DNA of 64,000 bases from an uncultured Bacillota bacterium (GCA_946614255.1 CAMOGS010000048.1:18-64017); one strand, 5' to 3'. Numbered from the stretch's first letter, positions 8,319 through 59,317 are shown. A program made the numbers and translations. The notes: a model not told the origin generated them from the letters alone.

Positions 8319-8319
8319 C

Positions 8320-8691: not shown

Positions 8692-8760
8692 TTCTGTTTT
8701 TCCCTTCTCTTTATCGAGTTTATACCGAATCTTTACCGAATTTTTATCGGGACTTTATCG

Positions 8761-8817
8761 GGACCTGTCCCCAAATTTGCCAAAATTCCAATTTGGTGCC
8801 TGTCCCCAAATTCGCCG
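8761..8817. repeat. Dispersed modular repeat, locus 2 (units C, A in reverse orientation)
   Basis: GGACCTGTCCCCAAATTTGCCAAAATTCCAATTTGGTGCCTGTCCCCAAATTCGCC. It ends 1 nt from the infB stop codon. Confidence 0.9.
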
Positions 8818-14015: not shown

Positions 14016-14026
14016 TTCCTCCTTTT

Positions 14027-14151
14027 CCAATCTGGGGACAGGCACCAAATTCGCCTTTTTTCCAATTTGGGGACAGGCACCGAATTCGCCTTTTTTCCAA
14101 TTTGGGGCACGTCCCTAAATTCGCCTTTTGGGAAGTTTGGGGACAGGTCCC
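14027..14151. repeat. Dispersed modular repeat, locus 3 (composite A-A-B-C)
   Basis: Four direct units with cores GGGGACAGGCACC, GGGGACAGGCACC, GGGGCACGTCCCT and GGGGACAGGTCC, joined by CGCCTTTTTTCC-type linkers. Located in the rimP 5-prime leader. Confidence 0.92.
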
Positions 14152-17200: not shown

Positions 17201-17367
17201 TTGCCCTTCTCGGTCGTGATCTTTACTGTACCGCTCACGCCCGCAATTTTCATTACAGTCGCGCTCGCAACTTCACCGGTGCCTGCAGAGCCCGCCGCAA
17301 AAGCGGAGCCTGCGCCGAAAGTAAACACCAGTGCCAAAGTAAGCATTAGACATAATAGTTTTCTCAT
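14260..17367 (-). CDS. Giant secreted repeat protein, paralog 1 (signal peptide, FecR-like domain, YDG/MBG-like module, beta-helix-like module)
   Basis: ATG at 17367 after GGAGG. MRKLLCLMLTLALVFTFGAGSAFA signal peptide. FecR-like block ATVMKIAGVSGTVKI...LTTGIRGTSG. GWLRGYTGVYDGAAH module. C-terminal N-x-G-rich region ending TFPHRNGTFTAQ. Confidence 0.85.
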   Translation of the reverse strand: MRKLLCLMLTLALVFTFGAGSAFAAGSAGTGEVASATVMKIAGVSGTVKITTEKGKDITPSDGTKLLSGYTVKTAAASYCYISLDDAKAIKLGQSTKVKIEKSGKKIEINIKSGEVFFDVDKKLSGSESMNMKTSNLTTGIRGTSGDIKVQRKKSGGDSVYLVSSDTTTIFNLYSGVTETKMSSARTATERVSAGSSLSVSGASKPAQLLGLGIGATSNTTVIPQIGDGTAGAQVIIKGAAELNAFAARAILEQAAIKGGVSVGTALSAPTEQIVAAAGDSLTSLGIADTVKEQLTAQASDGQALDAQIANEEQQAVQQTEAAAQTIEGAKTDAGSGNVGGAASASVFDNVSVQAGGSIDAGRVTFEGGGVTVSDTPSGSSGGGSSHSGGTSQQEGWLRGYTGVYDGAAHDVLESAPSEQKEQYSIWVFKASDSNDMEVYESLRAVYDAAVDSLSEGDYSDDEALGIVMEAIGQIETGRMNDDLMTGHEVTNVSDSGTYYYFAVKNDNYTDRHEGDFDVSITRAPLEVVWYVSGGSHDMPEVATPGASYVSTAAIFRQGPARPSFCTTMGGEYTEVYYDTVSGYGTEEIEFMPYGAFMNSGPAQTQTGYSLLVEGIRLSVPGQDNRPVVSQTDNFYYPGGSSYEYTLIDDSQGNTGGNTGSAGPSEVDGSFFSQGRWADRTEYDIAFVANGNQADPTSSDAPPIPVYDKYFKGDTERREAGCTIEDIVAVLANTTSYASVYIDTGDEVKPISNDMIINTGSFNRAVFISGAGFSWSNSGFVNTNATGTNGELYIKLGSNESDVETQLENVQSIYIASKATFINSGEFTLGYQMQIYGDVQNYGKIYISAAATGSLDPIKIFSGGTLEQYDGGMIWDRREIKLNSNSSLTGGRTTYGVESGGTMKLWGGALRRTITSDSVEPENTTTKVALRARAIFSVQGTERISYDGNYRFEPIDQSGNSLETVSEGIVLCTYSGGGTVLGARLDGDNRVFHDSANGDFPRGSFFVTGDNSELNSDGHFVEITFPHRNGTFTAQ

Positions 17368-17408
17368 TGTAAAATCCTCCGTTAACAGAGTGCACCCCAA
17401 TTACGATA

Positions 17409-18509: not shown

Positions 18510-21500
18510 CTAAACTGCGAATGTGCCTGCAGGGATTGGGAATGACAGGTATACATAACAGTCACTGTCAGACACAAAATCAGCACTGTTGTATGTTGCC
18601 CAGAATGTATTATCAAGAAGGTTAGTGTCACCCGAGAATATATCTGAGCCAAGGTCATCATTTAATACAGGCTCGTCATCTAGCAGCACTGAACCGTGGA
18701 TGTTTCCGCTGCCTTCGTCCATTCTGCAAAGGACTGCCCTTGGGAATTCAGAAGCGGCTGTCTCCGGCGTGTACATGAAGTTTCCATCCACAATTTCAAT
18801 AGGATCTATTTCTCCTGCACGGAACATTACCTTTACAATAGCTTTTATAAGGTCACCGTTATCTTCAATTTCATTAAAGTTCGTGCCTACAGCTATGCTG
18901 CGTTTAAGGGTACCACCGTAGAGTTTCACCTCCGCACCCTCTCCAATATTGATTAGGCCAGCGTTATCTGCGGTGATAACTGCACTCCCGCCGCTTTCAA
19001 AGCTGCAGCTTACCTCTCTGCTATCCCAAATGCAGCCGGAACCGTTCTGCGTCATCTCGCCGCCTGCAGCGACTGCAATGCCGACATTTGTTCCGCCTTC
19101 AATGTTTATATTACCTTCATTCGAAAGCAAGCTGCCCGCGCCTATTGTAACAGTAGCGCCTTCGCTAATGATATTGCTGTCACTCATGTTAGCGAGGATT
19201 GCTCCATCGGTAATCGTTACAGGTGTTCCACCAATGTTCAATATACCGCTGTTTGTAACAGTTGCGCCACCACTTTGGATATTGAATGCGCCAACACTAC
19301 CGGTGCCGTATTCAGACAGCGTAAACATGGCGTCGTTTGACAAACAGCCTGCATTTGTTACATTAACATATTTCGCTTCAATAGCACCGATGTTGGTGAG
19401 CATCGCGCCTTCGTGCTGAACATTCAGTGTCTGCGTCTTTATTGAACCGCTGTTTATAAACTCAGCATTTTCATCGACCGTAACCGTAGTTGCGCCAAAG
19501 CTATAGTCCTGAGAATCCGATTCTGTCCTTACATAAACCTTTTTGCCATCTTCGGCGCTAAGGGTTACCCTTACGGTTCCAAAATTAATGCCTGCGCCGG
19601 TGATAAGCACCGCCTTGTTTGCTGTTTCTGCGCTTATTTCAACATCATTCGCGTAGGTATCAGGAACGGTTCTGCGTGAGTCACCTGTGTCCCAGTAGAT
19701 GCTGCTGTAAGTCGTACTCGACATAGCGGCAAGTACTTCATCTATGCCTACACTTGTACCCATCTCAGCACCATTCACATACTTCATATATGAGCTGTCA
19801 TTCACAGCCACATACCTTACATCGTAATTACTGCTGTCGCTCCAGTTTTCACGGTTTGACTCATCAAAGACTCCGTCCGTTACGACAAGGCCGGTAGTGC
19901 TGCCGCCGCCTTCAGGCCGCAGGGTATAGGTGTAGGTTGCCGTCGCCGGATCGATGTAGTAATTATCTACGTACATTTGCGGTGTAGCGATAGGATTTTC
20001 CGCATCGGCGTCGACATAGCACTCAATGCCTGTTACTGTCACGCAATATGTTCCGGCACCGCTTACTGCGGAATGAGTCGTAATCAGTTTATAATAGCCG
20101 AAATCCTCCCCATTAAGTTCATACCACCCAACCGTCGGCATGTAGTAGGAACCGGAAACTGCCGGACCACTCACAATGTACGGAACAACCGGAACGTCGG
20201 TTGTGTATGGATAAGCCGCTCCTGAGGCCGCAAGGCTTTCCGCCGGTACGATTTCCGGCTCAGGAAGATTCTCAATGTCTAAAGCATTAGGCACATCCGG
20301 ATGCACCGTAAACCACTTTACGCCGACTGCAGCACGAGTGATATCTATTGTGAAGTTGCCTGTAAATGCGCTGCCCGTCGGATATTTCGGAAGTGCAAAG
20401 TAGTAGTAATATCCGCTACTTAGAACATCGACTACTCCTATTTCTTGTACAAGCGTCTCCCTATTGGAGATAAGGTGCCAGTCATTGTATGTAAGTGTTC
20501 TGCTTGTGACGCTTGGAAGCTGCTCGCCTCCGATGCTCGACTGCACTTGCGCAAGACTTTCCTCAGTCGCCACGAAATCGCCGCTTTCAAAAATCGCCTT
20601 CATGGAAGCTAAGAAAGGAGTATAGTCAACTCCGTTCGGATTATCGGCATTAAAATCGTCGTCGTTAAACGCCCAAATCCAGTAGTCACTCTGCTGAACT
20701 GCACTTAGACTTACCGGCGAATGAGGGTCGCCATCATATGTTCCGCTGTATCCTGTGAGCCAACCGTCAGCTTCAGTTCCGGCGCCGCTTACGATATTGA
20801 TATGCGTTCCCGTAGGGTCAGTTGTGCCAACTACCACGAAGCTGATTGACAAAGCCCCGTCTGTGGCGTAGAGATTTGCCGTTTCCTTCTTGCCGCTTAC
20901 GGTATTGCCATTATATGTGTATGTGATACCCGAAGTTGTTGCGTAGTATGTTCCCGCCTCCGTATAAGAGTCTCTTTCCGGATAGCCAAGGCTGATGTTA
21001 ATCCTGCTTTCCGAAAGCTCGGCACTATCTTCGTCAATTATGTAATCTTGAGTGATTTCGACAAACTCACCATCCACAATTATTCCGATTTTCGGCGTTC
21101 CCAAATGGAGATCGGGTACTTCAGATATAGATATGGTTGTTCCGTCCGTAAACTCTTCGTCCGGCTCGTACTCGTAATACCACTTGGTCGCAATCGCTGC
21201 CTTTGTGATATCTACCTCGAAATTGCCGGCATAAGCATTATTCTGTGCAGTCTTCGGGATTGCTACATACCGCCACGAGCCGGAATCTACAACATTCTTT
21301 GCAAAGAGTGCATCCAAGGCTTGCCATGCCTCGCTGCTGTATTCATGCTGGTTTACGAATCCCGTAGCATGGTCGATACTAATAGCGTTTAATTGCTCCC
21401 TTATAGCCGAAAGAGAGGCTGCCATGGTATCGGTAGCCTGTGCCGGTGTGCATTCGCCAAGAAGCGCAGATGCAGAAGACTTTACTGTGTTAAATGACTC

Positions 21501-24500
21501 GGTTTCTTCCGGTCCAAAGAGCCAAATGTAGTAGTCCTCCTGCTGAATAGCAGTCGGGCTGATTGCAAGATGATTTTGCGTATCATACGTTCCCGTGTAT
21601 CCCGCCAGCCAGCTGTTTGCAGCAGCGCCGCTTACGATAGTAAGCCCTGTCGGGTTGGTAGCCACTTCATAAGTGCCTGCAGGTGCAGGGAAGGAAATCT
21701 TGTTGAAGACTGCTGCGCCCGGGGTGCTCTGTGCATCGCTTGTTACGTAGAAGTAGCCGCTTGTCTGCTCAATGCCGGTGCCTGATACAACAGAGCCGTT
21801 TATAGCATATCTTTCAGCTTGTGATCCGGAGTTGTTAAATTCGCACTTTATTGCCTGTGCAGTATCACCACCGTTTTGCGGAGTGTAATTCATGGCTTCA
21901 ACTGCTAATCTGGAACCTATAATTGCCTTTGCAATTGTTTCAAGCCTTAACCTCTCGTTAGCCGGATTTAACGGAACATTGTTAGTTATTAACTTTTGAA
22001 TGCTTCCTCCATATATATTTACGGTACCAACGGAACTGTTTGAACCGCGGAAGCCAAAGGTTGGATAATTTGCAGACGCGTCTGTACCTGCAAATGTTCC
22101 TGTTTCATCAAACGCTGAAGGTTTATAATCTCGAACATATACATTATCAGGATTTACACCTGTCGGAACCTCCTGTGTGAATGTGCCGCCGTGAATATCC
22201 AAATAATCCTCGTGTGTCTCCGAAATGTCAATTTTGCCTCTGTTAAGAAGCGTTGTACCTTCTGTTATCCACAGTCCGCACGGGATTACCATATGCCCTT
22301 CGTTGATAAGCGCGCCGGTGCCGTTAATAACTGTAGGCGATTCCAATCCGGCTGCGATTTCTCCGGCTGCAGCATTTTTGAATGTACCATTGCCATCTAA
22401 ATAAGCATTGCTCATGCCACTGTCTTTGAACTTCACCAGACCTTCATTTATAAATTCAGCGCCCGATGTGACAGTTATGCTGCTCAGGCTTGTAAGCCTG
22501 CCGCTGTTTATGATATCCACACCGCTGCCTACACTGATATTCGCTGACTCAATTGCAGTCTGTGAGGTTCCTGCAGCTGCCGCAGAACCATCGCCGACTC
22601 TTACAAAGAGCTTGTTGCTGCCGACTGCGCTAAAGGTTGTATAGCCTGCGGTCGCGATTCCCGGACCGCTGATAAATACAGCTTTGTTTGTGGTGGTTGC
22701 AATTATTTCGAAGTTTCCGTCGAGATGTAGCTGCTCATACATCGGATTATCAGCCCTAGGTACAAACAGCTCTGCCGCATCCGCAGGGGTAGGTTCCCAG
22801 TAGATGCTGCTGTTAGTTTCGCCTGCGTCTTTAAGCCAGTCACTTACCGTGTCAAGGCCAATTGGTTCATTCACAAATTCACCGTGCCTGTATAATTGAT
22901 ATTCCATGAGGCCGAAGTCATTAGGTTCCCCTGCAATGAGCGCAACATCATACTTTGTATAATCGCTCCAGTTTGCACGGTTTGAATCATCAAAGACTCC
23001 GTCCGTTACGGCAAGCCCCGTAGGCTGCGCCGGCTCAACATATTCCGTAAACGAAGCATCCGACCCTGCGATTGGGAAGGTAATCTGTGCATAAGCCGCG
23101 TTTGGATAGCTTGCTGCGCCAAAAGTTGTATTGAGCTCTGTCGCCCAAATATTTTTGCGCGTGATTGAACCGCCCATAGGATTGCTGTCCGTCGCCGTTG
23201 AAAGCGTCGTCACACCGTTATTTATAAACGAGCCCGCAATATTATTTCCGCCCGCAGCTGTATAATAGAACTTGTACGCTCTTGCCTGTGTTCCGTCAGG
23301 TGCAGTATATGTAAATGCCCTGCCGCTGTCCATAGCATGCATGGTCATATAGTTTCCAAAGCTTGCGTATACGAGCGTCTTTATATAATCATCAGGAAGC
23401 GTATATCCCGTAGCCACATTCAAATCGCGCTTCAGGCTGCCGCCGTAGATTTCGACATTTCCGCCACCCATAATATTGAACATCGGATGTGGTGGGTTCG
23501 GCTCCGTCGTTTCCGCATTAAGCAGTGTCTGCCGCTTGTCCCATATTGTGCCGCTCTCCTGTGTCAGGAAGCCGCCCCGCAGATATATCGTCTCTGCTGC
23601 ATTTTCATGCATTGTGAGATTTCGGTAGTTTACAAAATCGCCCGAAACAGTCATGCTGTTCATCAATGTGACTGTACCGTTGTTTGTAACATAAGTATTT
23701 GCGCCTACATTCAAATTCGGAACCTTGAACCTCGTTCCTTCATCACTTGCCGTAAGCCCCGCACCATCACCTATCTTTACAACCAGCAGTCCTCCGCCGG
23801 ATACCATGCTTATCGTGCCGCTTGTTTCAAAGCCGCAGTCGATTCCTGCGCCGGAAATGTAAATTGCGCGGTTTGAAGCTGTAGCTGCCATGGCCTGCGC
23901 TGCGCTCAGCACGTCAGGTGAAAGATACTGCGCAGTCCTGCCGGTATCCCAAAGAATCGTATTGTAGGTGTTCGATGAAGAACCCAGCGCCGCGAGGACT
24001 TCGCTCACAGTATGCCCCTCAGTTACTTCGCTCTGCGTTCCCGGACCGTTCACCCTCGCGTACTTTGTGTAAGTGCTCTCATTTCCGTCATTCTCCGCAA
24101 TAAATGCGAGATCGTATGTCGTATAGTCACCCCATGTTTCACGGTATGCCGCGCTGAAGAAGTCCTGATTTGCAACAACGCTTCCAACAGGAGGCGCCGC
24201 TACTCTGTAGGTATACTGCATATTTTGCCCCGACAAGAAGTAATTGTCGGTTTGAGTTCTGCCGGTGTAATTAGTGCCGTCATCATCTTGTATGTAGGAT
24301 GCGAGCCGCACGGTATATTCGCCTGCACGGCCCTGAGGAGCATCACCTGCCACAACCGGCTCGAAAGTGACATCGACTCCTCCGGAGCTGATGGTATCAG
24401 CTGCTCTGTAATCATCATCCGCACCAAATATTGCGAAATCCTGCGGAGTTCTGTATACGCCTATTACCGGCACCACAGGAATCTGCTCCGTACCTGCAGG

Positions 24501-26090
24501 GAATAAGGCATTCTGCGCTACTTCCTCATTTGTTTCGCGGTCATACCACTTTATCGAAATCTCTGCTTTACCAATTAATACCCGAACATCGCCATACCTG
24601 CTGCCGGCTACATCGCCCTTTTCGATTGCGAAATAGTAATATACGCCGCTGTCAGCCACATTTTCTACTGTTTGGCTGTCCGAAGTTGCCAGATTACTGT
24701 CAAACTCAGCGAGGTCGTCACTCCAGTAGTTTCTCAAATAAGCACCGAACGCCGGCACACCGCCGGGAGTTCCCGCCATGCTCTCGCTTACCTCGGCATA
24801 CTCGCTTTCCACACGGCTGTAAAGCGCAACCAATTCATTATATCTATCCGCATCATTGAAAAACCATATATCGTAGTCAGCAAGCCTTGCTGAAAGGTTT
24901 GTCGCTATCGCATGGCTTTGGCAGTCATATGTGCCCGTATAGCCGGTAAGCCAAGCTTCCTCCTGCTGGCCGCCCGAGCTGCTGCCGCCGCCTGTAGAAG
25001 GACGCGTAGTTGGAGTATCCTCCACTGTCACAGCATTGCCATCGAATACGGCCTTGCCTGCGTCAATGCCTGCGCTTTGCTGCACGCTGACATTTTCGAA
25101 AACCTGCTCGGAAGCTGCGCCTTCTGCGCTGCCGCTGCCTGCGTCTGTCTTTGCGCCTTCAATTGTCTGTGCCGCTGCTTCGGTCTGCTGTACAGCCTGC
25201 TGCTCTTCGCCGGCTATCTTTTCATCGAGAAGCTGTGGGTCTGAGACTGCATCGCTAATCTGCTGCAGCGCATTATCCGCAACCTGCAGAGTTTCCAGAG
25301 CTGCGCCGGCCTGCTCCACAATCTTTTCCGTCGAAGCCTGTAATGCTTCGCCCACAGGCATACCATTTTTGATTGCGGCATTTTCGATGATTGCTCTCGC
25401 GCCGAAGTTGTCAATCTCAAGCTCGGACTTTTGGATGAGCTGCTCAGGCGCCGGTAACGAAGGGGTCAGTAAACCCGGAGTGCCCGGAGTACTCGGAATG
25501 TCCGGAGTTAATGCGAAAGTGAGCTGCTCGCCGGCAGAGAGTTTGGCTGATGGACCTATTCCGATGCCCGGCTTTATTTCAGTCTGTCCGGAGAAAAGCT
25601 GCATGGTGGTTTTTTGATTTAGCCTCAAAGATGAGAAGGGTCTGGTGACCACCTGCATTGTACCGCTCGTTCCACGGATGCCGGTGGTGAGGTTGCTCGT
25701 TTTGATGTTCATCGACTCATTGCCCGAAAGCTTTTTTTCAACGTCAAAATAGAGTTGCCCGCTCTTTAGAGTAATTTCAATCTTTTTGCCCGACTTTTCA
25801 ATCTTTACCTTTGTGTTCTGGTCGAGCTTTATAGCCTTTGCGTCATCAAGGCTGATGTAGCAATACGAAGCTGCTGCGGTCTTTACAGTATATCCCGTAA
25901 GGAGCTTCGTGCCGTCAGACGGTGTTACGTCCTTTCCTTTCTCGGTCGCAATCTTTACGGTGCCGCTGGTGCCCGCAATTTTCATGACCGTTGCACTTGC
26001 ATCACCTGCAGAGTCTGCCGCAAAAGCAGAGGCTGCGCCGAATGTGAGCACGAGTGCCAGTGTCAGGATCAAACTAAATACTTTTCTCAT
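18510..26090 (-). CDS. Giant secreted repeat protein, paralog 2 (2526 aa; FecR-like domain + modules A1-B1-B2-A2-A3-B3)
   Basis: Signal peptide MRKVFSLILTLALVLTFGAASAFA and a FecR-like block. There are three W-L-x-G-Y-(T/S)-G-T-Y-D modules with GxYYYFA and KW motifs. There are also three beta-helix-like modules, each ending (I/L)YGG(S/T)(L/I)(K/Q)(R/K) ... (S/T)FP(I/A)(P/A)(A/G). Confidence 0.88.
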   Translation of the reverse strand: MRKVFSLILTLALVLTFGAASAFAADSAGDASATVMKIAGTSGTVKIATEKGKDVTPSDGTKLLTGYTVKTAAASYCYISLDDAKAIKLDQNTKVKIEKSGKKIEITLKSGQLYFDVEKKLSGNESMNIKTSNLTTGIRGTSGTMQVVTRPFSSLRLNQKTTMQLFSGQTEIKPGIGIGPSAKLSAGEQLTFALTPDIPSTPGTPGLLTPSLPAPEQLIQKSELEIDNFGARAIIENAAIKNGMPVGEALQASTEKIVEQAGAALETLQVADNALQQISDAVSDPQLLDEKIAGEEQQAVQQTEAAAQTIEGAKTDAGSGSAEGAASEQVFENVSVQQSAGIDAGKAVFDGNAVTVEDTPTTRPSTGGGSSSGGQQEEAWLTGYTGTYDCQSHAIATNLSARLADYDIWFFNDADRYNELVALYSRVESEYAEVSESMAGTPGGVPAFGAYLRNYWSDDLAEFDSNLATSDSQTVENVADSGVYYYFAIEKGDVAGSRYGDVRVLIGKAEISIKWYDRETNEEVAQNALFPAGTEQIPVVPVIGVYRTPQDFAIFGADDDYRAADTISSGGVDVTFEPVVAGDAPQGRAGEYTVRLASYIQDDDGTNYTGRTQTDNYFLSGQNMQYTYRVAAPPVGSVVANQDFFSAAYRETWGDYTTYDLAFIAENDGNESTYTKYARVNGPGTQSEVTEGHTVSEVLAALGSSSNTYNTILWDTGRTAQYLSPDVLSAAQAMAATASNRAIYISGAGIDCGFETSGTISMVSGGGLLVVKIGDGAGLTASDEGTRFKVPNLNVGANTYVTNNGTVTLMNSMTVSGDFVNYRNLTMHENAAETIYLRGGFLTQESGTIWDKRQTLLNAETTEPNPPHPMFNIMGGGNVEIYGGSLKRDLNVATGYTLPDDYIKTLVYASFGNYMTMHAMDSGRAFTYTAPDGTQARAYKFYYTAAGGNNIAGSFINNGVTTLSTATDSNPMGGSITRKNIWATELNTTFGAASYPNAAYAQITFPIAGSDASFTEYVEPAQPTGLAVTDGVFDDSNRANWSDYTKYDVALIAGEPNDFGLMEYQLYRHGEFVNEPIGLDTVSDWLKDAGETNSSIYWEPTPADAAELFVPRADNPMYEQLHLDGNFEIIATTTNKAVFISGPGIATAGYTTFSAVGSNKLFVRVGDGSAAAAGTSQTAIESANISVGSGVDIINSGRLTSLSSITVTSGAEFINEGLVKFKDSGMSNAYLDGNGTFKNAAAGEIAAGLESPTVINGTGALINEGHMVIPCGLWITEGTTLLNRGKIDISETHEDYLDIHGGTFTQEVPTGVNPDNVYVRDYKPSAFDETGTFAGTDASANYPTFGFRGSNSSVGTVNIYGGSIQKLITNNVPLNPANERLRLETIAKAIIGSRLAVEAMNYTPQNGGDTAQAIKCEFNNSGSQAERYAINGSVVSGTGIEQTSGYFYVTSDAQSTPGAAVFNKISFPAPAGTYEVATNPTGLTIVSGAAANSWLAGYTGTYDTQNHLAISPTAIQQEDYYIWLFGPEETESFNTVKSSASALLGECTPAQATDTMAASLSAIREQLNAISIDHATGFVNQHEYSSEAWQALDALFAKNVVDSGSWRYVAIPKTAQNNAYAGNFEVDITKAAIATKWYYEYEPDEEFTDGTTISISEVPDLHLGTPKIGIIVDGEFVEITQDYIIDEDSAELSESRINISLGYPERDSYTEAGTYYATTSGITYTYNGNTVSGKKETANLYATDGALSISFVVVGTTDPTGTHINIVSGAGTEADGWLTGYSGTYDGDPHSPVSLSAVQQSDYWIWAFNDDDFNADNPNGVDYTPFLASMKAIFESGDFVATEESLAQVQSSIGGEQLPSVTSRTLTYNDWHLISNRETLVQEIGVVDVLSSGYYYYFALPKYPTGSAFTGNFTIDITRAAVGVKWFTVHPDVPNALDIENLPEPEIVPAESLAASGAAYPYTTDVPVVPYIVSGPAVSGSYYMPTVGWYELNGEDFGYYKLITTHSAVSGAGTYCVTVTGIECYVDADAENPIATPQMYVDNYYIDPATATYTYTLRPEGGGSTTGLVVTDGVFDESNRENWSDSSNYDVRYVAVNDSSYMKYVNGAEMGTSVGIDEVLAAMSSTTYSSIYWDTGDSRRTVPDTYANDVEISAETANKAVLITGAGINFGTVRVTLSAEDGKKVYVRTESDSQDYSFGATTVTVDENAEFINSGSIKTQTLNVQHEGAMLTNIGAIEAKYVNVTNAGCLSNDAMFTLSEYGTGSVGAFNIQSGGATVTNSGILNIGGTPVTITDGAILANMSDSNIISEGATVTIGAGSLLSNEGNINIEGGTNVGIAVAAGGEMTQNGSGCIWDSREVSCSFESGGSAVITADNAGLINIGEGAEVKLYGGTLKRSIAVGTNFNEIEDNGDLIKAIVKVMFRAGEIDPIEIVDGNFMYTPETAASEFPRAVLCRMDEGSGNIHGSVLLDDEPVLNDDLGSDIFSGDTNLLDNTFWATYNSADFVSDSDCYVYLSFPIPAGTFAV

Positions 26091-39412: not shown

Positions 39413-39416
39413 AATT

Positions 39417-39470
39417 CTAATCTGGGGACAGGCACCAAATTGGAATTTTTTCTAATTTGGGGACAGGTCC
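39417..39470. repeat. Dispersed modular repeat, locus 4 (units A, C)
   Basis: CTAATCTGGGGACAGGCACCAAATTGGAATTTTTTCTAATTTGGGGACAGGTCC. Confidence 0.9.
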
Positions 39471-39518
39471 GAATATAATCTGAAATATAATCCTTTGAAA
39501 TATAATCCTTTGAAATGA
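39471..39518. repeat. 15-bp tandem repeat (GAAATATAATCCTTT x2 plus two partial copies)
   Basis: Perfect copies at 39482-39496 and 39497-39511, flanked by the partial copies GAATATAATCT and GAAATGA. Confidence 0.85.
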
Positions 39519-39540
39519 GGCCTGCTTGAAGTGTGGGCCT

Positions 39541-40338
39541 TTAAAGTAAAATGAACGTTATATAGTAATATACCAGCGGTGCGGTAAAGAGTATGCTGTC
39601 AAAGCGGTCCATTATGCCGCCGTGGCCCGGAATCAGCTTGCCGTAGTCCTTTATGCCCATCTTGCGCTTGAATATCGATGCGGTGAGGTCGCCAAACTGC
39701 GACAGGACGCCGCCGAGCACGCCGATTGCGATGCAGTGCGGCAGCAGGCTTGGTACCAGCGCCACTGCGAAAATCGCGCAGAGAATCACGCTTCCCAGCG
39801 CCCCGCCGACTGCGCCTTCGATGGTCTTTTTAGGACTGATGGTCGGGCAAAGCTTGTGCTTGCCGATGGCATAGCCTGTGAAGTAGGCAAAAATGTCCGT
39901 GCCGAAGGCTGTGATGAATATCAGCCAGATCAGGATTCTGTACTCGGATATGCCGTCCACGAGGAATACGTGGTACGAAAAGAACACTATGTAAAAGCAC
40001 GAAAGCATTGTAACCATCGCATCTTCGAGCTTTTCATGCTTTGGGCAAAACAACGTCAGCAGTGATAAAATCACCACAAGGAACAGCCAGAATGCGTAGA
40101 GGCTTTGCACCTGCACGCCGCCGAATCTGCCGGCCAAGCCCAGTGCATACAGCACCAGTGTGCAGACTGCCACCAGGCCGTAGTTTGCATGCACATCAAG
40201 CTCCTCATAGCCCTTTACAAACTCATGTGCGCCGATAAGCCCTATTGCCAGGCACGCCAGCGCAAGCGGAATTCCGCCAAAATACACCAAAAGCAGCAGC
40301 GGCAGCATTATGCACGCGCTGATTATTCTCGTCTTCAC
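39541..40338 (-). CDS. cdsA: Phosphatidate cytidylyltransferase
   Basis: 265-aa polytopic membrane protein with the C-terminal signature SQFGDLTASIFKRKMGIKDYGKLIPGHGGIMDRFDS. GTG start overlaps the uppS stop (GTGA). Confidence 0.92.
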   Translation of the reverse strand: MKTRIISACIMLPLLLLVYFGGIPLALACLAIGLIGAHEFVKGYEELDVHANYGLVAVCTLVLYALGLAGRFGGVQVQSLYAFWLFLVVILSLLTLFCPKHEKLEDAMVTMLSCFYIVFFSYHVFLVDGISEYRILIWLIFITAFGTDIFAYFTGYAIGKHKLCPTISPKKTIEGAVGGALGSVILCAIFAVALVPSLLPHCIAIGVLGGVLSQFGDLTASIFKRKMGIKDYGKLIPGHGGIMDRFDSILFTAPLVYYYITFILL

Positions 40339-41065: not shown

Positions 41066-41200
41066 CAACCTGTCCCTTTTTTAGAATTTTGGCGAATCTG
41101 GGGACAGGCACCAAATTGGAAAAAAGGCTAATTTGGTGCCTGTCCCTAAATTGGATTTTTGGCGAATTTGGTGCCTGTCCCCAGATTCGCCCCAAATTAG
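41066..41200. repeat. Dispersed modular repeat, locus 5 (C-like remnant, then A forward, A reverse, A reverse)
   Basis: AACCTGTCCC... GGGGACAGGCACCAAATT (41100-41117) ... AATTTGGTGCCTGTCCCT (41130-41147) ... AATTTGGTGCCTGTCCCC (41165-41182) ... CCAAATTAG. Confidence 0.9.
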
Positions 41201-46073: not shown

Positions 46074-46276
46074 TTTTAATTCCCCCTTAGTTTAAATTAG
46101 TTTGGATATATTATCCAAAATTTTTCTTTTAATACTCTAATATTAATACCCTAATATTATAATACTAATTCGTTTGTTTTGGTGTAATTAATGTGTCTTT
46201 TATGTGAAAAGTATGCTAAAATATTTTTCGAAATCGGAAACAGCAGCAGTCAGAACCTGAAAATGGGGTAAGCATT

Positions 46277-47053
46277 ATGAAAAATATGGATTATATCCGT
46301 TTCAATATTAAAGAAGCAGCCGATGCTGTCGGTGTCGTTCCCGCTACCATCAGGAACTGGGAGCGGGCAGGTCTGTTTACATCCAAACGCTCCGGAAACA
46401 ACTATCGCTATTTTGATTCGGATGATATAGAGCTTTTGCGGAAAATCGTTTCCTACTCTTCCGAGGGTATGAGCATTTCCTTCATAAAAAAGCTCGTGTC
46501 CGAGAAAAGGCGCGGCGGCGCGGGTGATTACAGCAGCAAGCTTCACAACCTCAGAGTCAGCAGAGGTCTGACGCTGACTGAGGTAAGCAGAGAAATTGGG
46601 ATTTCGCCGTCTTACTTAAGCCGCATGGAGCAGGGGAAATGCAACATCACGCGGGATGCGCTGCAAAAGCTCACTGCATTCTACGGCGAGGAAGCGTCAG
46701 AGCTTGTGGCCACTGCTGCGGCGCTTGTGAAAAAGGGGCAGGGCCGGGTAGTTTCGGCGGAATCGGCGGGATGCGATTATCGCTTGCTTGACGGTGCTGA
46801 AAGTCCCTACTTCAAAGTGGCGGAGGTGTATGTAAAGCCGGGCGGCGGCACGGCTGAAGGCTTGCAGCATCAAAAGTCGGGCAACGATGTGGTCTTTGTG
46901 GTGAAGGGAGAAGTCCTCTTCACGCTTAATGACCTCTCCGAGTATCGCGTAAAAAAGGGCGATTCAATTTCGTTCCGGGCCGCAGAGCTGGAACGCTGGG
47001 TTAATCCGGCGAAAACCGAAGCACAGATTATTTGGATTCACAGCAATTTGTAA
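46277..47053 (+). CDS. Three-domain transcriptional regulator: MerR-type HTH + XRE-type HTH + cupin
   Basis: The N-terminal part NIKEAADAVGVVPATIRNWERAGLF...YRYFDSDDIELLRKI matches MerR. The middle part LRVSRGLTLTEVSREIGISPSYLSRMEQGK matches HTH_3. The C-terminal cupin-like barrel reads VVFVVKGEVLFTL...GDSISF. Confidence 0.75.
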   Translation: MKNMDYIRFNIKEAADAVGVVPATIRNWERAGLFTSKRSGNNYRYFDSDDIELLRKIVSYSSEGMSISFIKKLVSEKRRGGAGDYSSKLHNLRVSRGLTLTEVSREIGISPSYLSRMEQGKCNITRDALQKLTAFYGEEASELVATAAALVKKGQGRVVSAESAGCDYRLLDGAESPYFKVAEVYVKPGGGTAEGLQHQKSGNDVVFVVKGEVLFTLNDLSEYRVKKGDSISFRAAELERWVNPAKTEAQIIWIHSNL

Positions 47054-48546: not shown

Positions 48547-49023
48547 TTAAAGCTCCAGCTTCAGGAATATTGCGTAATCGAGAGGATTATCATTGTATTT
48601 TTCAGTGGGTTTAAATCCGATTTTCTCGTAGAGTTCGAGCGCATCCGTTAAATTCGGAAGAGTATCAAGAAGCATTGTTTTATATCCCTTTGCTCTCGCA
48701 TCCGTTATTATTCTGTCCATCATACTGCGGCCTATGCCAAGACCCCTGTATTCGTCATACAGGAAAACCCGTTTTACCTCGCAGGTCGTTTCATCGAGCT
48801 TTTTAAATGCGATGCAGCCGACATCTTTACCATCTACATTAACAATGTAGATGCCGCCTTCACCGTATTTTTCGTGCAAATGCTCGGTCTCGTCGTCAAA
48901 GCTTTGCATGATCAGAAACTTTCTGAGCTGCGGGTCTTTTTCCATTAGGAACTTATGATAGTCTTCAAAGAAAGGCAGGAGCCTTTCCGGTAATTCCAGA
49001 GCATTTATAATTTCCGGTTTCAT
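48547..49023 (-). CDS. GNAT-family N-acetyltransferase
   Basis: 158 aa. Motif A YRGLGIGRSMM and the LYEKIGF tail. Confidence 0.85.
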   Translation of the reverse strand: MKPEIINALELPERLLPFFEDYHKFLMEKDPQLRKFLIMQSFDDETEHLHEKYGEGGIYIVNVDGKDVGCIAFKKLDETTCEVKRVFLYDEYRGLGIGRSMMDRIITDARAKGYKTMLLDTLPNLTDALELYEKIGFKPTEKYNDNPLDYAIFLKLEL

Positions 49024-49047
49024 TTTCCTTACCTCACATTCTAAAGG

Positions 49048-49144
49048 CTAATCTGGGGACAGGCACCAAATTCGCCTTTTTTCCAATTTGGTGCCTGTCC
49101 CCAAATTCGCCTTTTTTCCAATTTGGTGCCTGTCCCCAAATTAG
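49048..49144. repeat. Dispersed modular repeat, locus 6 (A forward, A reverse, A reverse; identical linkers)
   Basis: CTAATCTGGGGACAGGCACCAAATTCGCCTTTTTTCCAATTTGGTGCCTGTCCCCAAATTCGCCTTTTTTCCAATTTGGTGCCTGTCCCCAAATTAG. The terminal TTA (49141-49143) is the nitrilase stop codon. Confidence 0.95.
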
Positions 49145-50067
49145 CGGTCGTCGATGGTGAGCTTTAGTGCGTCGGGACGGGCGTAGTGGCCGCAGACATC
49201 GTGTTCCATTCGGCTTGCAGGAACCTTTTCCATATCAAGCTCGGCAAAGATGATGCCTTCCTTGTCCCATATCGTTTCGCCCACAACATGGCCAAACGGA
49301 TCGATAATATTGCTGCCGCCTCGGCAGACGATGTCCGGAAGCTTTGCAATTTCCGCCTTTGAAGGCTCGCTTAAGCCTTGCGGATACATGTCTTTTGTGA
49401 AGAACATATCACAGTTGATGAAGTAGCAGTGGCCTTCGATTGCGATGTGGCGAACAGTGTCCTGCCACTCGGCGTTGTCGTTGGTATTTGCGGAAATATA
49501 GAGGCTTATGCCCTTCTGATACAGCGCTACTCGCGCCAGCGGCATATAGCTTTCCCAGCAGATTAGACAGCCCATTGGCCCCCAAGGAGTGTCCATAACC
49601 GGAAAATAGTCTCTGTCGGCATCGCCGAATACCACGCGCTCGCTGCCGGTCGGCTTCAGCTTGCGGTGGTTCATCTTTTCGCCCTCCGGCGAAATCATCA
49701 TATTTGAATTGTATAGTGTGGCTGTGACCGGATCGACTTCAGAATATCCGATGCTGACGTAGACCTTGTTATCCTTTGCCGCTTTAACGATTTCAGCCAT
49801 TTCGGGCCCGTCAGCCAGTATGGAATTGTCATAATAAAGCTTCCAGTCCTTGCGGCCGTCAGATGTGCGCGCGCCTACCGTAAAACCAAATGTCATTCCG
49901 TACGGATAGCACGGTATGAAAAGCTCCGGAAATACGATGAGCTCAGCTCCCTTTTCGGCGCATTCATTTATCAGCTTTATCGTCTTTTTTACGCAGGCAT
50001 CCTTGTCGAACATGACCGGTGCGCCCTGGATTACTGCGATTTTACAAGTACTTTTACGAATAATCAT
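49141..50067 (-). CDS. Nitrilase-superfamily carbon-nitrogen hydrolase (nitrilase branch)
   Basis: 308 aa. E-K-C triad contexts VFPELFIP, HRKLKPT, LICWESYMP. Confidence 0.85.
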   Translation of the reverse strand: MIIRKSTCKIAVIQGAPVMFDKDACVKKTIKLINECAEKGAELIVFPELFIPCYPYGMTFGFTVGARTSDGRKDWKLYYDNSILADGPEMAEIVKAAKDNKVYVSIGYSEVDPVTATLYNSNMMISPEGEKMNHRKLKPTGSERVVFGDADRDYFPVMDTPWGPMGCLICWESYMPLARVALYQKGISLYISANTNDNAEWQDTVRHIAIEGHCYFINCDMFFTKDMYPQGLSEPSKAEIAKLPDIVCRGGSNIIDPFGHVVGETIWDKEGIIFAELDMEKVPASRMEHDVCGHYARPDALKLTIDDR

Positions 50068-55025: not shown

Positions 55026-55910
55026 ATGATAAAGAGTATGACAGGTTTCGGCCGTGCTGAATACAGCGACGGCAAGCGCAACATTACAGTGGAAATTCGT
55101 ACGGTGAACCACCGCTACAGCGACATCACAATCAAGATGCCGCGCCGCTATTCCTTTGCGGAGGACAAGATCAAGAACAAGATTAAAGAGACGATTGTTC
55201 GCGGAAAGGCGGACGTTTCGATTATGGTTGACAATCTGACGGAAAATGATTTGAATGTCACGCTGAACACGATGGTGGCAAAGCAGTACTACGACAATCT
55301 GCGCGAGCTTGCTACGACCTTTGAACTGCCGGGCGAGATTGACCTGCAGTTTGTGGCGAGCCTGCCGGATGTGATGAAGGCGGTTCCCGATGTGGACGAT
55401 GAGGAAGAGATCACAAAGAGCTTGCTCGTTCCTGTCGAGGAAGCCTGCAAAAAGCTCGACGAAATGCGAATCATCGAGGGTGCAAAGCTTGCTGAGGACC
55501 TCATCCACAGAGGTAAGCTCATTCGCGAGTTTGCCGCAAAGATAGAAAAGCGTGCGCCGATGGTTTCCGAGCAGTACGCAAAGAAGCTTAAAGAGCGCAT
55601 CACAGAGCTGATTGGCGGTTCGGTGAACATTCCGGAGGACCGCATACTCGTGGAAGCCGCGATTTTTGCCGACAAATGCAACATCACCGAAGAGCTGGTG
55701 CGCCTCGACAGCCACACCATACAGCTTGAGAGCATCATTACAAAGTCGAACCAGCCTGACGGTAAAAAGCTCGACTTTTTGGTTCAGGAGATGAACCGCG
55801 AAGCGAACACCATCGGCTCAAAGGCAAACGATATCGAAATTACGAACCTGATGCTCGACATAAAGGCCGAGGTCGAAAAGATTCGCGAGCAGGTGCAGAA
55901 TATACAGTAG
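55026..55910 (+). CDS. yicC: YicC/YloC-family endoribonuclease
   Basis: MIKSMTGFGRAE...VEIRTVNHRY and the C-terminal DFLVQEMNREANTIGSKA. Confidence 0.9.
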   Translation: MIKSMTGFGRAEYSDGKRNITVEIRTVNHRYSDITIKMPRRYSFAEDKIKNKIKETIVRGKADVSIMVDNLTENDLNVTLNTMVAKQYYDNLRELATTFELPGEIDLQFVASLPDVMKAVPDVDDEEEITKSLLVPVEEACKKLDEMRIIEGAKLAEDLIHRGKLIREFAAKIEKRAPMVSEQYAKKLKERITELIGGSVNIPEDRILVEAAIFADKCNITEELVRLDSHTIQLESIITKSNQPDGKKLDFLVQEMNREANTIGSKANDIEITNLMLDIKAEVEKIREQVQNIQ

Positions 55911-56008
55911 GCGTGCAAATAGGCGCAATGCTTGTGAAGGTGATTCTGTGACTGAAGTGTTTAGCTATTTTAAGTGGATTAGTGCATTAGAGAATTAAGG
56001 AGGATAGT

Positions 56009-56269
56009 ATGTTAGGGGGAATAATACTCGGTATAGTGCTGATTGCGTGTATAGTCAGCCCTTTCATAAAAGATTCACATACAAATAAGTATGCCGGGAA
56101 GATAGTGTCAAGTCACATGCTTAATGAAGATATTACCAAAGAACGCGACAAAGAACTCCCGCAAATAAATCCTGTAAATGGTAGTACCAACAACTATGCG
56201 CGATTAGATAAGTCTTGGAGTAGTTTCCCGGATTTTGTCATTAAGTTTATCAAGGGGTGGCGTAAATAA
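56009..56269 (+). CDS. Small membrane-anchored hypothetical protein (86 aa)
   Basis: Perfect AGGAGG SD, an N-terminal TM helix GGIILGIVLIACIVSPF, and its own terminator at 56355-56391. Confidence 0.65.
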   Translation: MLGGIILGIVLIACIVSPFIKDSHTNKYAGKIVSSHMLNEDITKERDKELPQINPVNGSTNNYARLDKSWSSFPDFVIKFIKGWRK

Positions 56270-56340
56270 TTTCGTGCTTGGCTAGCGTGATAGTTTCGTG
56301 CTTGGCAGGCGTGATAGTTTCGTGTTTGGCTAGCGTTGTA
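56270..56340. repeat. 24-bp tandem repeat x3 (TTTCGTGCTTGGCTAGCGTGATAG)
   Basis: Copies at 56270-56293, 56294-56317 and 56318-56340 (the third is diverged). The array starts at the first base after the stop codon. Confidence 0.9.
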
Positions 56341-56354
56341 AATGTCAATATAAA

Positions 56355-56391
56355 AATGTCGTAAGCTACAAAGGCGTACGACATTTTTTTA
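56355..56391 (+). terminator. Intrinsic terminator
   Basis: AATGTCGTA-13 nt-TACGACATT followed by a T7 run. Confidence 0.7.
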
Positions 56392-56485
56392 TTTGGATGT
56401 AATGACGATTCATACAACTTCTACTATAGTTTTACAAATTCCATGATTGTTTTTTTGAAAATTTTATGGCATTTTATTATATTTA

Positions 56486-56494
56486 TGGTATAAT
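56486..56494 (+). promoter_or_regulatory. Extended -10 promoter element (TGgTATAAT)
   Basis: TGGTATAAT lies 68 nt upstream of the 56562 ATG in an AT-rich region. Confidence 0.4.
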
Positions 56495-56561
56495 CTGGTT
56501 ATGATTTCTTATATTCCTATTGGCAGCAGTGCATATATCATATATGTCTTAGGGGGGTAAA

Positions 56562-57359
56562 ATGGACGAATTAGGCAGGCTTATCAAAAAAAGGATTAAT
56601 TTACTGGCAAAGGCTATTAATGTGGCCGAGAGCGAAAAAGACGGCTTTCCGGAGGGTAGGCTGCGGCTCTCGGGTTCATCGGACTACCGGCAGTACTACA
56701 ATGTCATTCCCGGCAGTTCTAAAAGCGGAGAATATATCAAATCCGAGAACAAAAATGTTGCAGCCCTTTTGGCACAAAAAGATTATAACAGGCATTTTCT
56801 CAGGTTCGCGCAAAAAGAGCTTGCTGCACTTGAAAAGCTGGAAGGACTGCTGATACCGTGCAAAACCGATTCGGCATTCACCGAGCTTTGCAAGGATAGG
56901 AAAGGATTAATAAAACCATACATCGAACCGGATGAGGTGTATTTGGGAAGCTGGCTCAGCCAAAGCTTTCAAACAAACCGGTATCATGAAGAATACAAGG
57001 TCTATTCAACTAAGCGCGGTGAAAAAGTGCGGTCTAAATCAGAGGCAATTATTGCCAATATCATCTATGATTTGAAGATTCCATATCACTATGAAAAACC
57101 TCTTAAGCTTAAAGACGGTATGATAGCTTATCCGGATTTCACCCTGCTGGATTTGGGGCGTCGTAAGGAAAAATATTGGGAACATTTTGGGCTCATAACC
57201 CAAAAAGACTATCTCGAAAATGCTCTCAACAAGCTTGATTATTACGGCCGCAGCGATATCTACACCGGTGACAATCTGATAATTACTTTCGAAACGGAAG
57301 AGCACCCTTTGAACGCTGACACTATCACAAGTATGCTACGCAAGTTGTTTCTGTGTTGA
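56562..57359 (+). CDS. Hypothetical protein, helical N-terminal half plus possible PD-(D/E)xK (restriction-endonuclease-fold) C-terminal half
   Basis: AGGGGGG SD, 265 aa. Candidate nuclease-core residues are SKSEAIIANI, IAYPDFTLL and KYWEHFG. The fold assignment is by eye only. Confidence 0.55.
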   Translation: MDELGRLIKKRINLLAKAINVAESEKDGFPEGRLRLSGSSDYRQYYNVIPGSSKSGEYIKSENKNVAALLAQKDYNRHFLRFAQKELAALEKLEGLLIPCKTDSAFTELCKDRKGLIKPYIEPDEVYLGSWLSQSFQTNRYHEEYKVYSTKRGEKVRSKSEAIIANIIYDLKIPYHYEKPLKLKDGMIAYPDFTLLDLGRRKEKYWEHFGLITQKDYLENALNKLDYYGRSDIYTGDNLIITFETEEHPLNADTITSMLRKLFLC

Positions 57360-57391
57360 CTACTTTAAGGACCTGACCGTGGAAATGGAGT

Positions 57392-57596
57392 TTTCATCCT
57401 AAAGCACATTATTTTGTTTTTGAGCTGAAAAATTTTTGAGATTTTTCATCCCATTTTAGCATTTTTCGGTTTTAGGCTGAAATTTTTCTTCTTGAGAAGC
57501 TTGGATTTCATCTTAAAATCGCATTTTCCCTCTATAGGATGAAAAAACATATTGTTACTTCATCCTAAAGTCGCTTTTCTATATTATGGGATGAAA
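57392..57596. repeat. Array of six GGATGAA(A) motifs (four on minus, two on plus strand) in non-coding DNA
   Basis: TTTCATCC at 57392, 57444 and 57558 (CTTCATCC), plus TTTCATCT at 57506. GGATGAAA at 57537 and 57589. The four minus-strand copies share the extended context GC(G/T)nnTTTA(G/A)GATGAA. Confidence 0.8.
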
Positions 57597-57676
57597 TTTG
57601 CGTATACGCAGCAAGCTGCACCGGGCGGTTAGCCGTCCACGGCGCAGGTAATCAGCGTGGCGCCAAAAGACAACAA

Positions 57677-57704
57677 AAAGAGCTTTCCCGTAGGAAAGCT
57701 CTTT
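57677..57704. terminator. Terminator after rpoZ (usable from both convergent directions)
   Basis: 12-bp stem AAAGAGCTTTCC-CGTA-GGAAAGCTCTTT, with a T-rich tail on the minus strand. Confidence 0.7.
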
Positions 57705-57724
57705 GGACTCTTTTCATGCTGCTT

Positions 57725-58599: not shown

Positions 58600-58733
58600 G
58601 ACCTGTCCCCAAATTCCCCAAAAGGCTAATTTAGGGACGTGCCCCAAATTGGAAAAAAGGCGAATTTGGTGCCTGTCCCCAAACTTCCAAAAAGGCGAAT
58701 TTGGTGCCTGTCCCCAAATTCGCCTCAGATTAG
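58600..58733. repeat. Dispersed modular repeat, locus 7 (composite C-B-A-A, the reverse complement of locus 3 architecture)
   Basis: GACCTGTCCCC...TAGGGACGTGCCCC...GGTGCCTGTCCCC...GGTGCCTGTCCCCAAATTCGCCTCAGATTAG. The terminal TTA (58730-58732) is the stop codon of the upstream gene. Confidence 0.92.
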
Positions 58734-59317
58734 CGTTTGGATTTGCGGCGGCGGGTGGATTTCTTCATTACGGAGAAGCCGAAGCCTCCGACGCTGCGGC
58801 GGCGAAGCGGAATGTACTCGCCGTGGCAGTAAGCCACCAGCCCCGCTGCATCCAGAGCTATGCGCCCCTTGGAATCCACAATTTTCTCGTCCGCATGCAT
58901 GCCCACTATTTCTGCCACAAACATTGTATGCGTGCCGTAGTCGTGAGTCTCCACCACCTTGCACTCGAGGTTTAGCGGCGATTCTGCAATCATGGGGCAC
59001 TTCACCTTTTCCGCCTTTTCGGGTGTAAGCTTCATTTCCTTCCATTTGTCGACCTTTGCGCCGCTTTTGACGCCGCACCAGTCGCACGCGCGCGTAAGCT
59101 CCTCACTTACGAGGTTTATCACAAACTCGCCCGATTTCTTTATTATGTCATAGGAATGCCTCTCGGGGCGCACCGATATGTAAGTCATCGGCGGCTCGGA
59201 GTTCACGATTCCCGTCCACGCTATTGTAATTATATTTTTCTCTTTCCCCTCTCCGCAGGATACCATCACCACAGGAAGCGGCGATTCCACACAGCCGGGG
59301 CCAAACGATTTTTTCAT
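58730..59317 (-). CDS. Flavin reductase-like (FMN-binding split-barrel) protein
   Basis: 195 aa. PLPVVMVSC...NIITIAWTG...PPMTYISVRPERHSYDII. ATGA overlap with the rluD stop. Confidence 0.8.
   Translation of the reverse strand: MKKSFGPGCVESPLPVVMVSCGEGKEKNIITIAWTGIVNSEPPMTYISVRPERHSYDIIKKSGEFVINLVSEELTRACDWCGVKSGAKVDKWKEMKLTPEKAEKVKCPMIAESPLNLECKVVETHDYGTHTMFVAEIVGMHADEKIVDSKGRIALDAAGLVAYCHGEYIPLRRRSVGGFGFSVMKKSTRRRKSKR

Follow-up and report, generated by a model that had tools for sequence, protein, structure and literature searches.

Families of small hairpin repeats, REP, BIME and BOX among them, influence how operons are expressed and how genomes rearrange, and they matter for strain typing. 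To our knowledge, the way in which such repeats spread is understood for a few proteobacterial families only. The BOX elements of Streptococcus pneumoniae are intergenic hairpins with distinct terminal modules and a variable internal number; they have no known transposase and are co-transcribed with their neighbours. Their modules are 45-59 nt long and the family is confined to streptococci. In the dRS3 repeats of Neisseria the arms are conserved and an 8-nt centre varies, with the units flanking 50-150-nt segments of intergenic mosaic elements. Eukaryotic foldback elements and bacterial MITEs are non-coding, variable in length and built from long inverted arms of short tandem subrepeats around a short centre. 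In REP repeats the conserved parts are the stems and a head tetranucleotide, GTAG or CGTC, at one end of the palindrome, and the CGTC-type repeats of Neisseria form large clusters (PMC3733652). REP-type class 2 Y1 enzymes are sparse and tend to co-occur in Cyanobacteria, Bacteroidetes and Proteobacteria (PMC6006769).

The repeat family described here was found in a 64-kb stretch of DNA from an uncultured Bacillota bacterium, referred to below as the window. Like REP and BIME repeats, which are 20-40 nt long, it consists of short imperfect palindromes in high copy number, extragenic and often inside operons, occurring singly, as inverted doublets or in clusters with short linker motifs, and with several sequence variants per genome. 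It shares with BOX the modular logic, the terminal modules and the intergenic hairpins, although the sequences are seemingly unrelated. With dRS3 it shares a hairpin repeat of about 20 nt in intergenic arrays, but here it is the centre and not the arms that is conserved. Unlike REP, which conserves stems and head, the present family has a conserved loop and variable stems, and no GTAG or CGTC head was seen either in it or in the related hairpins of other taxa. A strict 35-nt period, a truncated end module and a tip common to several phyla also set it apart from REP and BIME.

Results

Anatomy of the repeat unit

The repeat unit comprises a 23-nt hairpin, termed K, followed by a 12-nt linker, giving a period of 35 nt. 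K has arms of 7 nt, AATTTGG and CCAAATT, on either side of a 9-nt centre, GGACAGGCA, and its tip is a near-invariant 13-mer, GGGGACAGGCACC. Each linker joins a 4-nt arm extension (CGCC, AGCC, GGAA or AGAA) to that of the following arm, also 4 nt, through a run of T or A. Since the arms of K are inverted repeats, the centre and the linker are each found in either orientation; the array at 49050-49142, for example, has the order K+, K-, K- and its two linkers share one orientation. Three core variants are present in the window, A (GGACAGGCA), B (GGACGTGCM) and C (GGACAGGTC), which diverge mainly at two central bases and on the 3' side (GGGAC-AG-GCACC, GGGAC-GT-GCMCC and GGGAC-AG-GTCCC respectively). 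The outer terminus carries its own variant, AATCTGG / CCAGATT.

Position-wise conservation among 236 distinct units peaks from TTTGG through GGACAGG, although the units were chosen by similarity to the query and their conservation is therefore somewhat inflated. A conserved C and G two bases beyond the K arms indicate that the stem is at least 9 bp long, and the hairpin unit ranges from 23 to 31 nt. The closed doublet at 49050-49107 folds as a hairpin of about 27 bp, with an energy of -31.9 kcal/mol as DNA (z = -9.2) and -61.9 kcal/mol as RNA (z = -10.2). The hairpin arrays have no coding capacity.

The seven arrays in the window

Allowing up to two mismatches, GGGGACAGGCACC occurs 15 times in the 64-kb window, whereas 0.89 occurrences are expected from dinucleotide-preserving shuffles and the shuffle maximum was 5. 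Scanning the window for the 23-nt hairpin AATTTGGGGACAGGCACCAAATT with up to six mismatches gave 20 units in seven arrays, which are listed in Table 1. Tandem Repeats Finder (TRF) reported the 35-nt period at 14023-14147, 49066-49142 and 58602-58721, and a 17-nt period at 8288-8321 (array 1). Identical arrays around rbfA are present in four other contigs from independent assemblies, so these arrays are not an assembly artefact.

Table 1. Arrays of the 35-nt repeat family in the 64-kb window. Flanking genes were named from ORFs, gene calls on an identical contig and Pfam. E, truncated end module; open and closed, form of the array end.
Array	Position	Gap	Form	Components and borders
1	8238-8319	nrnA/rbfA		K+ 8242-8264; linker 8265-8276; B-type inverted hairpin 8277-8299; 17-nt partial copy of outer end 8300-8319, final base touching the rbfA stop codon
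2	8760-8816	rbfA/infB	open	E module GGGACCTGTCCCCAAATTT from 8760; K- 8790-8812; CGCC 8813-8816; adjoins the infB stop codon
3	14025-14151	rimP/FecR-domain gene, upstream of rimP	open	K+ 14029-14051; K+ 14064-14086; B-type 14099-14121; E 14134-14150; left end touches the rimP ribosome-binding site
4	39415-39472	dxr/cdsA	open	K+ 39419-39441; linker; E ~39454-39471
5	41066-41200	uppS/frr		inward-facing end module 41066-41075; K+ 41095-41117; K- 41130-41152; K- 41165-41187; CGCC, then partial arm 41192-41200
6	49046-49144	GNAT/CN-hydrolase	closed	K+ 49050-49072; linker 49073-49084; K- 49085-49107; linker 49108-49119; K- 49120-49142; units 1+2 form the ~27-bp hairpin
7	58600-58735	gmk/flavin reductase	open	E 58600-58613; B-type 58628-58650; K- 58663-58685; K- 58698-58720; CGCC, then partial outer duplicate to ~58735

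The original prediction, made from the window alone, had placed about 20 units of a repeat at seven loci, with three core variants and shared outer termini, and all of this was recovered at the positions it gave. It had also stated that every locus lies between co-directional minus-strand genes; minus-strand genes indeed lie on both sides of all seven arrays, including those in the infB/rbfA/nrnA, dxr/cdsA and uppS/frr gaps. The unit of roughly 35 bp that it described stands as a period, but the unit itself had to be redrawn as the 23-nt hairpin plus the 12-nt linker, with core and linker each in either orientation. Its warning that the repeat corrupts ORF calling was justified, the mechanical ORFs of nrnA (350 aa versus 329 aa as called), rimP (203 aa versus 192 aa as called) and uppS (286 aa versus 242 aa in relatives) extending into the arrays. 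Three features described below go beyond that prediction: the strict grammar of the arrays, the differences between strains by whole 35-nt units, and the hairpin tip common to several phyla.

Two of the arrays have other short repeats beside them. Next to array 2, positions 8700-8760 contain five copies of an 11-nt phased repeat (CGATAAAGTCC / CGATAAAAATT / CGGTAAAGATT / CGGTATAAACT / CGATAAAGAGA) that occupies the remainder of the infB/rbfA gap; the entire 127-nt gap is missing from the closest relative. Next to array 4, a 15-nt tandem repeat, TGAAATATAATCCTT, is present in 2.4 copies at 39472-39545, and a 13-nt unit, AGTGTGGGCCTTT, is found in 1, 2 and 3 copies in the window, L049 and L058 respectively.

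Abundance and location in related genomes

Homologues of RbfA and Frr place the host among uncultured Clostridia, with Anaerovoracaceae and Anaerovorax as the nearest named relatives. When metagenome contigs were scanned with the 19-mer TGGGGACAGGCACCAAATT, at least 115 stretches matched, about 99 of which have the G+C content of the window, ~0.48, and several are 97-98% identical to parts of it. The matches listed, together with the window, amount to ~0.9 Mb and contain 345 hairpins as against 1 in shuffled DNA. These hairpins group into 173 arrays of 1-5 hairpins each, and the spacing of successive hairpins is exactly 35 nt in 167 of 172 cases. Arrays are dense: a single 118-kb contig holds at least 13, and the flanks contain about one more per 12 kb, compared with one per 9 kb in the window.

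Nearly all distinct arrays (135/141) are intergenic, though by a crude call ORFs make up ~92% of the DNA. The neighbouring genes are co-directional in 76 cases, convergent in 29 and divergent in 15. Two contigs, for example, L144 and L066, break off inside arrays.

Array grammar

The outer (left) end of an array consists of an arm extension and a hairpin whose outer arm is usually AATCTGG instead of AATTTGG; this outer unit contains …AATCTGGGG… and further K units follow it. The right end takes one of two forms. A 'closed' end is an inverted K that finishes in CCCCAGATT plus an extension and folds into the 27-bp hairpin. An 'open' end is the truncated module E, AATTTGGGGACAGGTC, in the form AATTTGGGGACAGGT(C/T), which stops directly after the centre. 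Open arrays are the majority.

Inverted doublets within arrays were '+-' in 30 cases and '-+' in none, so that the GGGG ends always point outward. As in REPINs, such doublets fold into one long hairpin. The orientation patterns of whole arrays include ++-, +-- and +++--; these runs of + followed by - differ from the alternation of BIMEs, although linkers are present in both. A 16-17-nt partial duplicate of the outer end is common, for example GGCGAATCTGGGGACA-A-GGCGAATCTGGGGACAGG, and 17-19-nt tandem half-units were observed in L093 and L062. The truncated E modules and the partial outer-end duplicates together indicate that breakpoints cluster in the hairpin centre. Outer borders vary, beginning at different points of the linker and with GGCG, GGCT, TTCC or TTCT as extension.

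Neighbouring open arrays were convergent in 31 cases, in the same direction in 7 and divergent in 1. Most convergent pairs lie 61-66 nt apart and form a long palindrome around a unique centre, ~4-11 nt long in the examples read. After removal of strain duplicates, counted by hand, 7 convergent, 4 same-direction and 1 divergent pairs remained, a weak excess. The genes enclosed by convergent arrays are ordinary native genes according to Pfam (rpmE, flavodoxin-like, EamA and RluA-like, with rbfA in the window). A gene-cassette system between convergent arrays was set aside, the convergent excess being only weak and the enclosed genes native.

Gain, loss and resizing of arrays

In strains 97-98% identical to the window the arrays are built in the same way, apart from a few substitutions. 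Some of these substitutions are clustered, as if one linker allele had replaced another in a conversion-like manner. Other strain pairs, whose flanks are 96-99% identical, differ in their number of complete 35-nt units, the arrays measuring 53 versus 158 nt, 123 versus 53, 123 versus 88 and 88 versus 53. Sites without an array were found in close relatives. The infB/rbfA gap is 1 nt long in the relative L028, whose RbfA is 91% identical, versus 127 nt in the window, and the frr/uppS gap of the relative L149 (Frr 93% identical) lacks a core and retains CTAAATCGCCAAAAAT, which from its sequence looks like an arm-plus-linker remnant. No arrays were present in more distant relatives compared at the same gaps. 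The differences in unit number between strains and the empty sites in relatives indicate that arrays come and go on a species time scale and change in length on a strain time scale.

Among the orthologous arrays of strains there was no flipped core and no inverted segment between inverted arrays. No target-site duplication was visible at array borders or in the comparisons of filled and empty sites, no fixed outer terminus was apparent across the oriented arrays, and no transposition event was caught among the strains compared.

In the rbfA/nrnA gap of L028 (GCA_017618375.1, 2284-2467) a different palindromic element of ~180 nt replaces the K array. It has the form CTCTGTGG…CCACAGAG with inner inverted repeats, and a fragment of it sits upstream of rbfA in L029.

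The hairpin tip in other phyla

The exact 19-mer TGGGGACAGGCACCAAATT was also found in species-representative genomes of other phyla, where about 4 matches would be expected by chance from the size of the collection. One match, in Paenibacillus, falls within a coding sequence and appears fortuitous. Many Collinsella genomes have the motif as the tip of hairpins such as CCTCAATTTGG-GGACAGGCA-CCAAATTGAGG, which are single, in inverted pairs or clustered, reaching 5 per 8 kb. Six copies lie within 4.6 kb of a Polyangiaceae MAG, among them inverted pairs and a K with a truncated copy after it, and the tips of the seven copies in an Armatimonadia MAG are slightly different. Metagenome contigs of high G+C content carry hairpins of the form ACTTAATTTGG-…-CCAAATTAAGT. 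Judged by their local repetition as inverted pairs or clusters, the copies outside Paenibacillus are not chance matches. The extensions flanking the arms in other taxa are CCTC, GTGC or ACTT.

In 34 hairpins from several taxa, 89.6% of the positions of an 11-bp stem were paired, a value somewhat inflated by the pre-filtering of the high-GC hairpins for at least 6 of 9 outer pairs; shifted registers of the same hairpins gave 25-57%. Both sides were altered in 9 of the 11 pairs, and positions 11-15 of the tip (G11-C15) were invariant. A conserved loop on drifting but complementary stems is as expected if the hairpin, and not the duplex, is recognised.

In one Collinsella species (L003, 7440-7690) two inverted K hairpins lie around ~187 nt, where another species (L010, 7900-7960) has a single hairpin. 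Comparison of the flanks suggests that an insertion took place beside a hairpin already present, and the segment lying between the two hairpins may also have been inverted. An XRE-cupin regulator occurs beside the hairpins in Collinsella L011 and also in the window; the two proteins are 23% identical and this was treated as a coincidence.

Searches for a partner gene, a named family or a function

In REP-bearing genomes the gene for the Y1 transposase, RAYT, is typically flanked by the repeats. A tblastn search with an IS200 transposase sequence gave no match in 1.2 Mb of fetched loci, and no RAYT was found in these loci. All-against-all clustering of 918 ORFs, with Pfam on the candidates, revealed no multi-copy family of transposase-like ORFs. 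Neither the 1.2 Mb of loci nor the plasmids and viral contigs searched yielded an autonomous element with the same ends; the plasmid collection and the viral contigs gave chance matches only, without hairpin context. Rfam 15 at the gathering score gave no match in the window and only tRNA and a TPP riboswitch in 15 other loci, and a scan of 48900-49300 at a permissive E-value gave spurious sub-threshold matches to miRNA models only. Motif strings searched in the literature returned only coincidences with eukaryotic primers.

The T run of the linker is in the sense strand 53 times and the A run 54 times, which indicates that arrays are neither selected nor counter-selected as terminators. No terminator-like site was called at the array, and with the T-run orientation random an intrinsic terminator was rejected. 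The K+ strand is in the sense direction in 31 pure arrays versus 15 antisense, or 100 versus 57 hairpins, a mild excess. With GC skew as a proxy, the leading-strand orientation was 42 versus 26 (p = 0.07). The strong strand bias expected for single-strand transposition on the lagging strand was thus not seen, the bias being weak by either count.

Several other identities were considered and dismissed. The 12-nt 'spacers' between hairpins are a few conserved linker alleles, contrary to a CRISPR array. The spacing is wrong for a sigma-54 promoter, and the sequence does not match dif/Xer sites, parS, CIRCE or CodY boxes. Sequencing adaptors would not explain arrays that are placed precisely between genes and recur in independent assemblies.

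Taken with the related genomes, these searches bear on the remaining parts of the original prediction. More than 115 further metagenome stretches carry the repeat outside the window, and the empty-site alleles that it proposed to look for exist in close relatives as empty or remnant sites. Its extrapolation to hundreds of copies per genome is supported by the window-like array density in related metagenome contigs. It had regarded the repeat as a non-coding, dispersed REP/BOX/MITE-like family, which agrees with the data, and had matched it to no named family; neither Rfam 15 at the gathering score nor the literature searched supplied one. The RAYT/IS200-like transposase that it suggested looking for did not turn up in the 1.2 Mb covered and may lie elsewhere.

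Discussion

The 35-nt family is non-coding, intergenic, hairpin-forming, modular and abundant, its array form is lineage-specific and its unit number is dynamic. The best reading of the analysis is that it resembles REP/BIME/REPIN and BOX in function and would have colonised the short gaps of an uncultured Clostridia lineage. On balance, and by no wide measure, we think it probable that the family is a non-autonomous, non-coding selfish repeat of the REP/BIME/REPIN kind that is spread by a hairpin-specific enzyme and resized by slippage. The hairpin, extruded from single-stranded DNA, would be recognised by a putative enzyme encoded elsewhere, and new loci would be seeded in this way. A candidate is a hairpin-specific nuclease or recombinase, for example an enzyme of the HUH/Y1 type akin to the REP-associated transposases. 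The taxa named for REP-type class 2 Y1 enzymes include neither Clostridia nor Actinobacteria (PMC6006769), so a partner, if one exists, may belong to another class of protein. If the enzyme reads the conserved tip, the tip would stay identical across phyla and the stems would drift and covary. Once seeded, arrays may lengthen, shorten and become more uniform through slippage during replication, through switches of template at the palindromic arms and through gene conversion. Consequences for operons, such as those of very stable RNA hairpins in polycistronic transcripts, would then be side effects and not the family's raison d'être.

The 13-nt core is nearly invariant in the family and identical across phyla, and the identical tip could just as well be where a conserved host protein binds. 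The arrays might then be duplex binding sites of a nucleoid-associated or topology factor, with TGGGGACAGG phased every 35 bp. BIMEs are reported to bind IHF, gyrase and Pol I, and it would suit such a protein that a half-motif occurs alone as a direct repeat (the E module, the half-units of L093 and L062, and the K with an E-like copy in Polyangiaceae) and that orientation relative to transcription is nearly neutral. However, the arms differ between taxa yet stay complementary, a pairing that a duplex reader does not need, although this complementarity could stem from fold-back copying instead of selection. The arrays are also dispensable because close relatives lack them at the same sites, no candidate protein surfaced, and the 35-bp period is out of helical phase. 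Binding sites of this sort seem unlikely to us, and because the arms covary and the relatives do without arrays we prefer spread by a hairpin-specific enzyme. The same preference holds over a miniature derivative of a DDE transposon, moved by its parent through cut-and-paste. The ends of Tn7-, Mu- and Tc1-like elements carry several transposase-binding sites in inward orientation, and the patterns ++-, +-- and +++--, never -+, recall this, as do the outermost unit with its own variant AATCTGG and the ~27-nt terminal inverted repeats of closed arrays, in which foldback elements and MITEs are likewise resembled. The open majority is without such repeats, one-armed copies predominate, no target-site duplication accompanies arrays whose outer boundaries vary, and neither a parent or related autonomous element nor a transposase was found in 1.2 Mb; the covariation of stems between taxa also speaks against it. 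With no target duplications, variable borders and no parent element, a DDE origin is improbable.

The position of the window arrays, all inside or between co-directional transcription units and touching stop codons and ribosome-binding sites, raises the question of whether they act mainly as RNA elements of operon transcripts (stabilisers, RNase processing sites or protein sponges) kept by selection. The very stable RNA fold of the closed doublet and the mild excess of K+ in the sense direction would agree with this. Yet both orientations are common, the T runs are evenly divided and no terminator-like site was seen; moreover the essential operons of close relatives manage without arrays, and there is no Rfam match at the gathering threshold. 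A mainly RNA-based role is very improbable, and enzyme-driven spread is again preferred, given the frequency of either orientation and the relatives that do without arrays. Local, VNTR-like tandem expansion by slippage, with no mechanism of dispersal, would account for the exact 35-nt steps between strains, but leaves unexplained the same unit at hundreds of unrelated intergenic sites, the defined end modules, the absence from the sites of relatives and the presence in other phyla. Slippage by itself is unlikely from the dispersal data, to the extent that we give it hardly any weight.

Returning to a hairpin-specific enzyme, a wider version of the proposal can be put forward tentatively, as possible but short of probable. 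The invariant tip GGGGACAGGCACC may be the substrate of a hairpin-specific enzyme or protein common to Bacillota, Actinomycetota, Myxococcota and Armatimonadota, that is, a REP-like system with loop-based recognition whose partner has spread horizontally with the repeats. If true, this would be a REP-like system distinct from the GTAG and CGTC superfamilies, in which the loop is read instead of stem and head. A loop identical in distant phyla, including the cultivable Collinsella, points to a conserved partner within reach of experimental isolation.

Also notable are a clean grammar, with a strict 35-nt period and defined end modules, and a position inside the core operons infB-rbfA and frr-uppS-cdsA-dxr of an uncultured gut or rumen-type Clostridia lineage. 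In practical terms the arrays cause wrong start-codon calls and break metagenome assemblies, and their unit-number polymorphism is a ready strain marker.

Other features of the window

A low-G+C island (0.40 versus ~0.48) extends from 55900 to 57720. Its orphan gene (56562-57359, 265 aa) is on the plus strand, unlike the minus-strand genes around it, and matched nothing by sequence in Pfam, NCBIfam or PDB. Strains with 97-99% identity in the flanks have only ~79% identity in the gene itself, and other contigs contain paralogues with at least 43% identity. The C-terminal half of the protein contains a YPDF…EHFG pattern, which we take to be reminiscent of PD-(D/E)XK nucleases. Downstream, at 57390-57620, are 4-5 dispersed iteron-like motifs of ~19 nt, TTCATCCTAAAG(C/T)CGC…, plus an inverted GGATGAAA, and upstream, at 56266-56336, is a 24-nt tandem repeat in three copies (ATAGTTTCGTGCTTGGCTAGCGTG). 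Gene, iteron-like motifs and tandem repeat together look like a small integrated element.

At 46095-46125 a palindrome, AGTTTGG-ATATATTAT-CCAAAAT, has K-like arms around an A+T centre. It lies in a divergent promoter region upstream of the gene for a MerR-HTH-cupin regulator (46277-47053) and is probably an operator, its likeness to the K arms being coincidental.

On the minus strand at 11559-12170, YlxR (DUF448) and an L7Ae-like protein form one ORF of 203 aa, called as 195 aa with both domains on an identical contig. In the relatives L030 and L032 they are two genes of ~95 and 105 aa. Upstream of rimP, also on the minus strand, 14260-17400 and 18510-26090 encode very large FecR-domain proteins of 1046 and 2526 aa, and in L030 and L032 polC takes the position of these genes.
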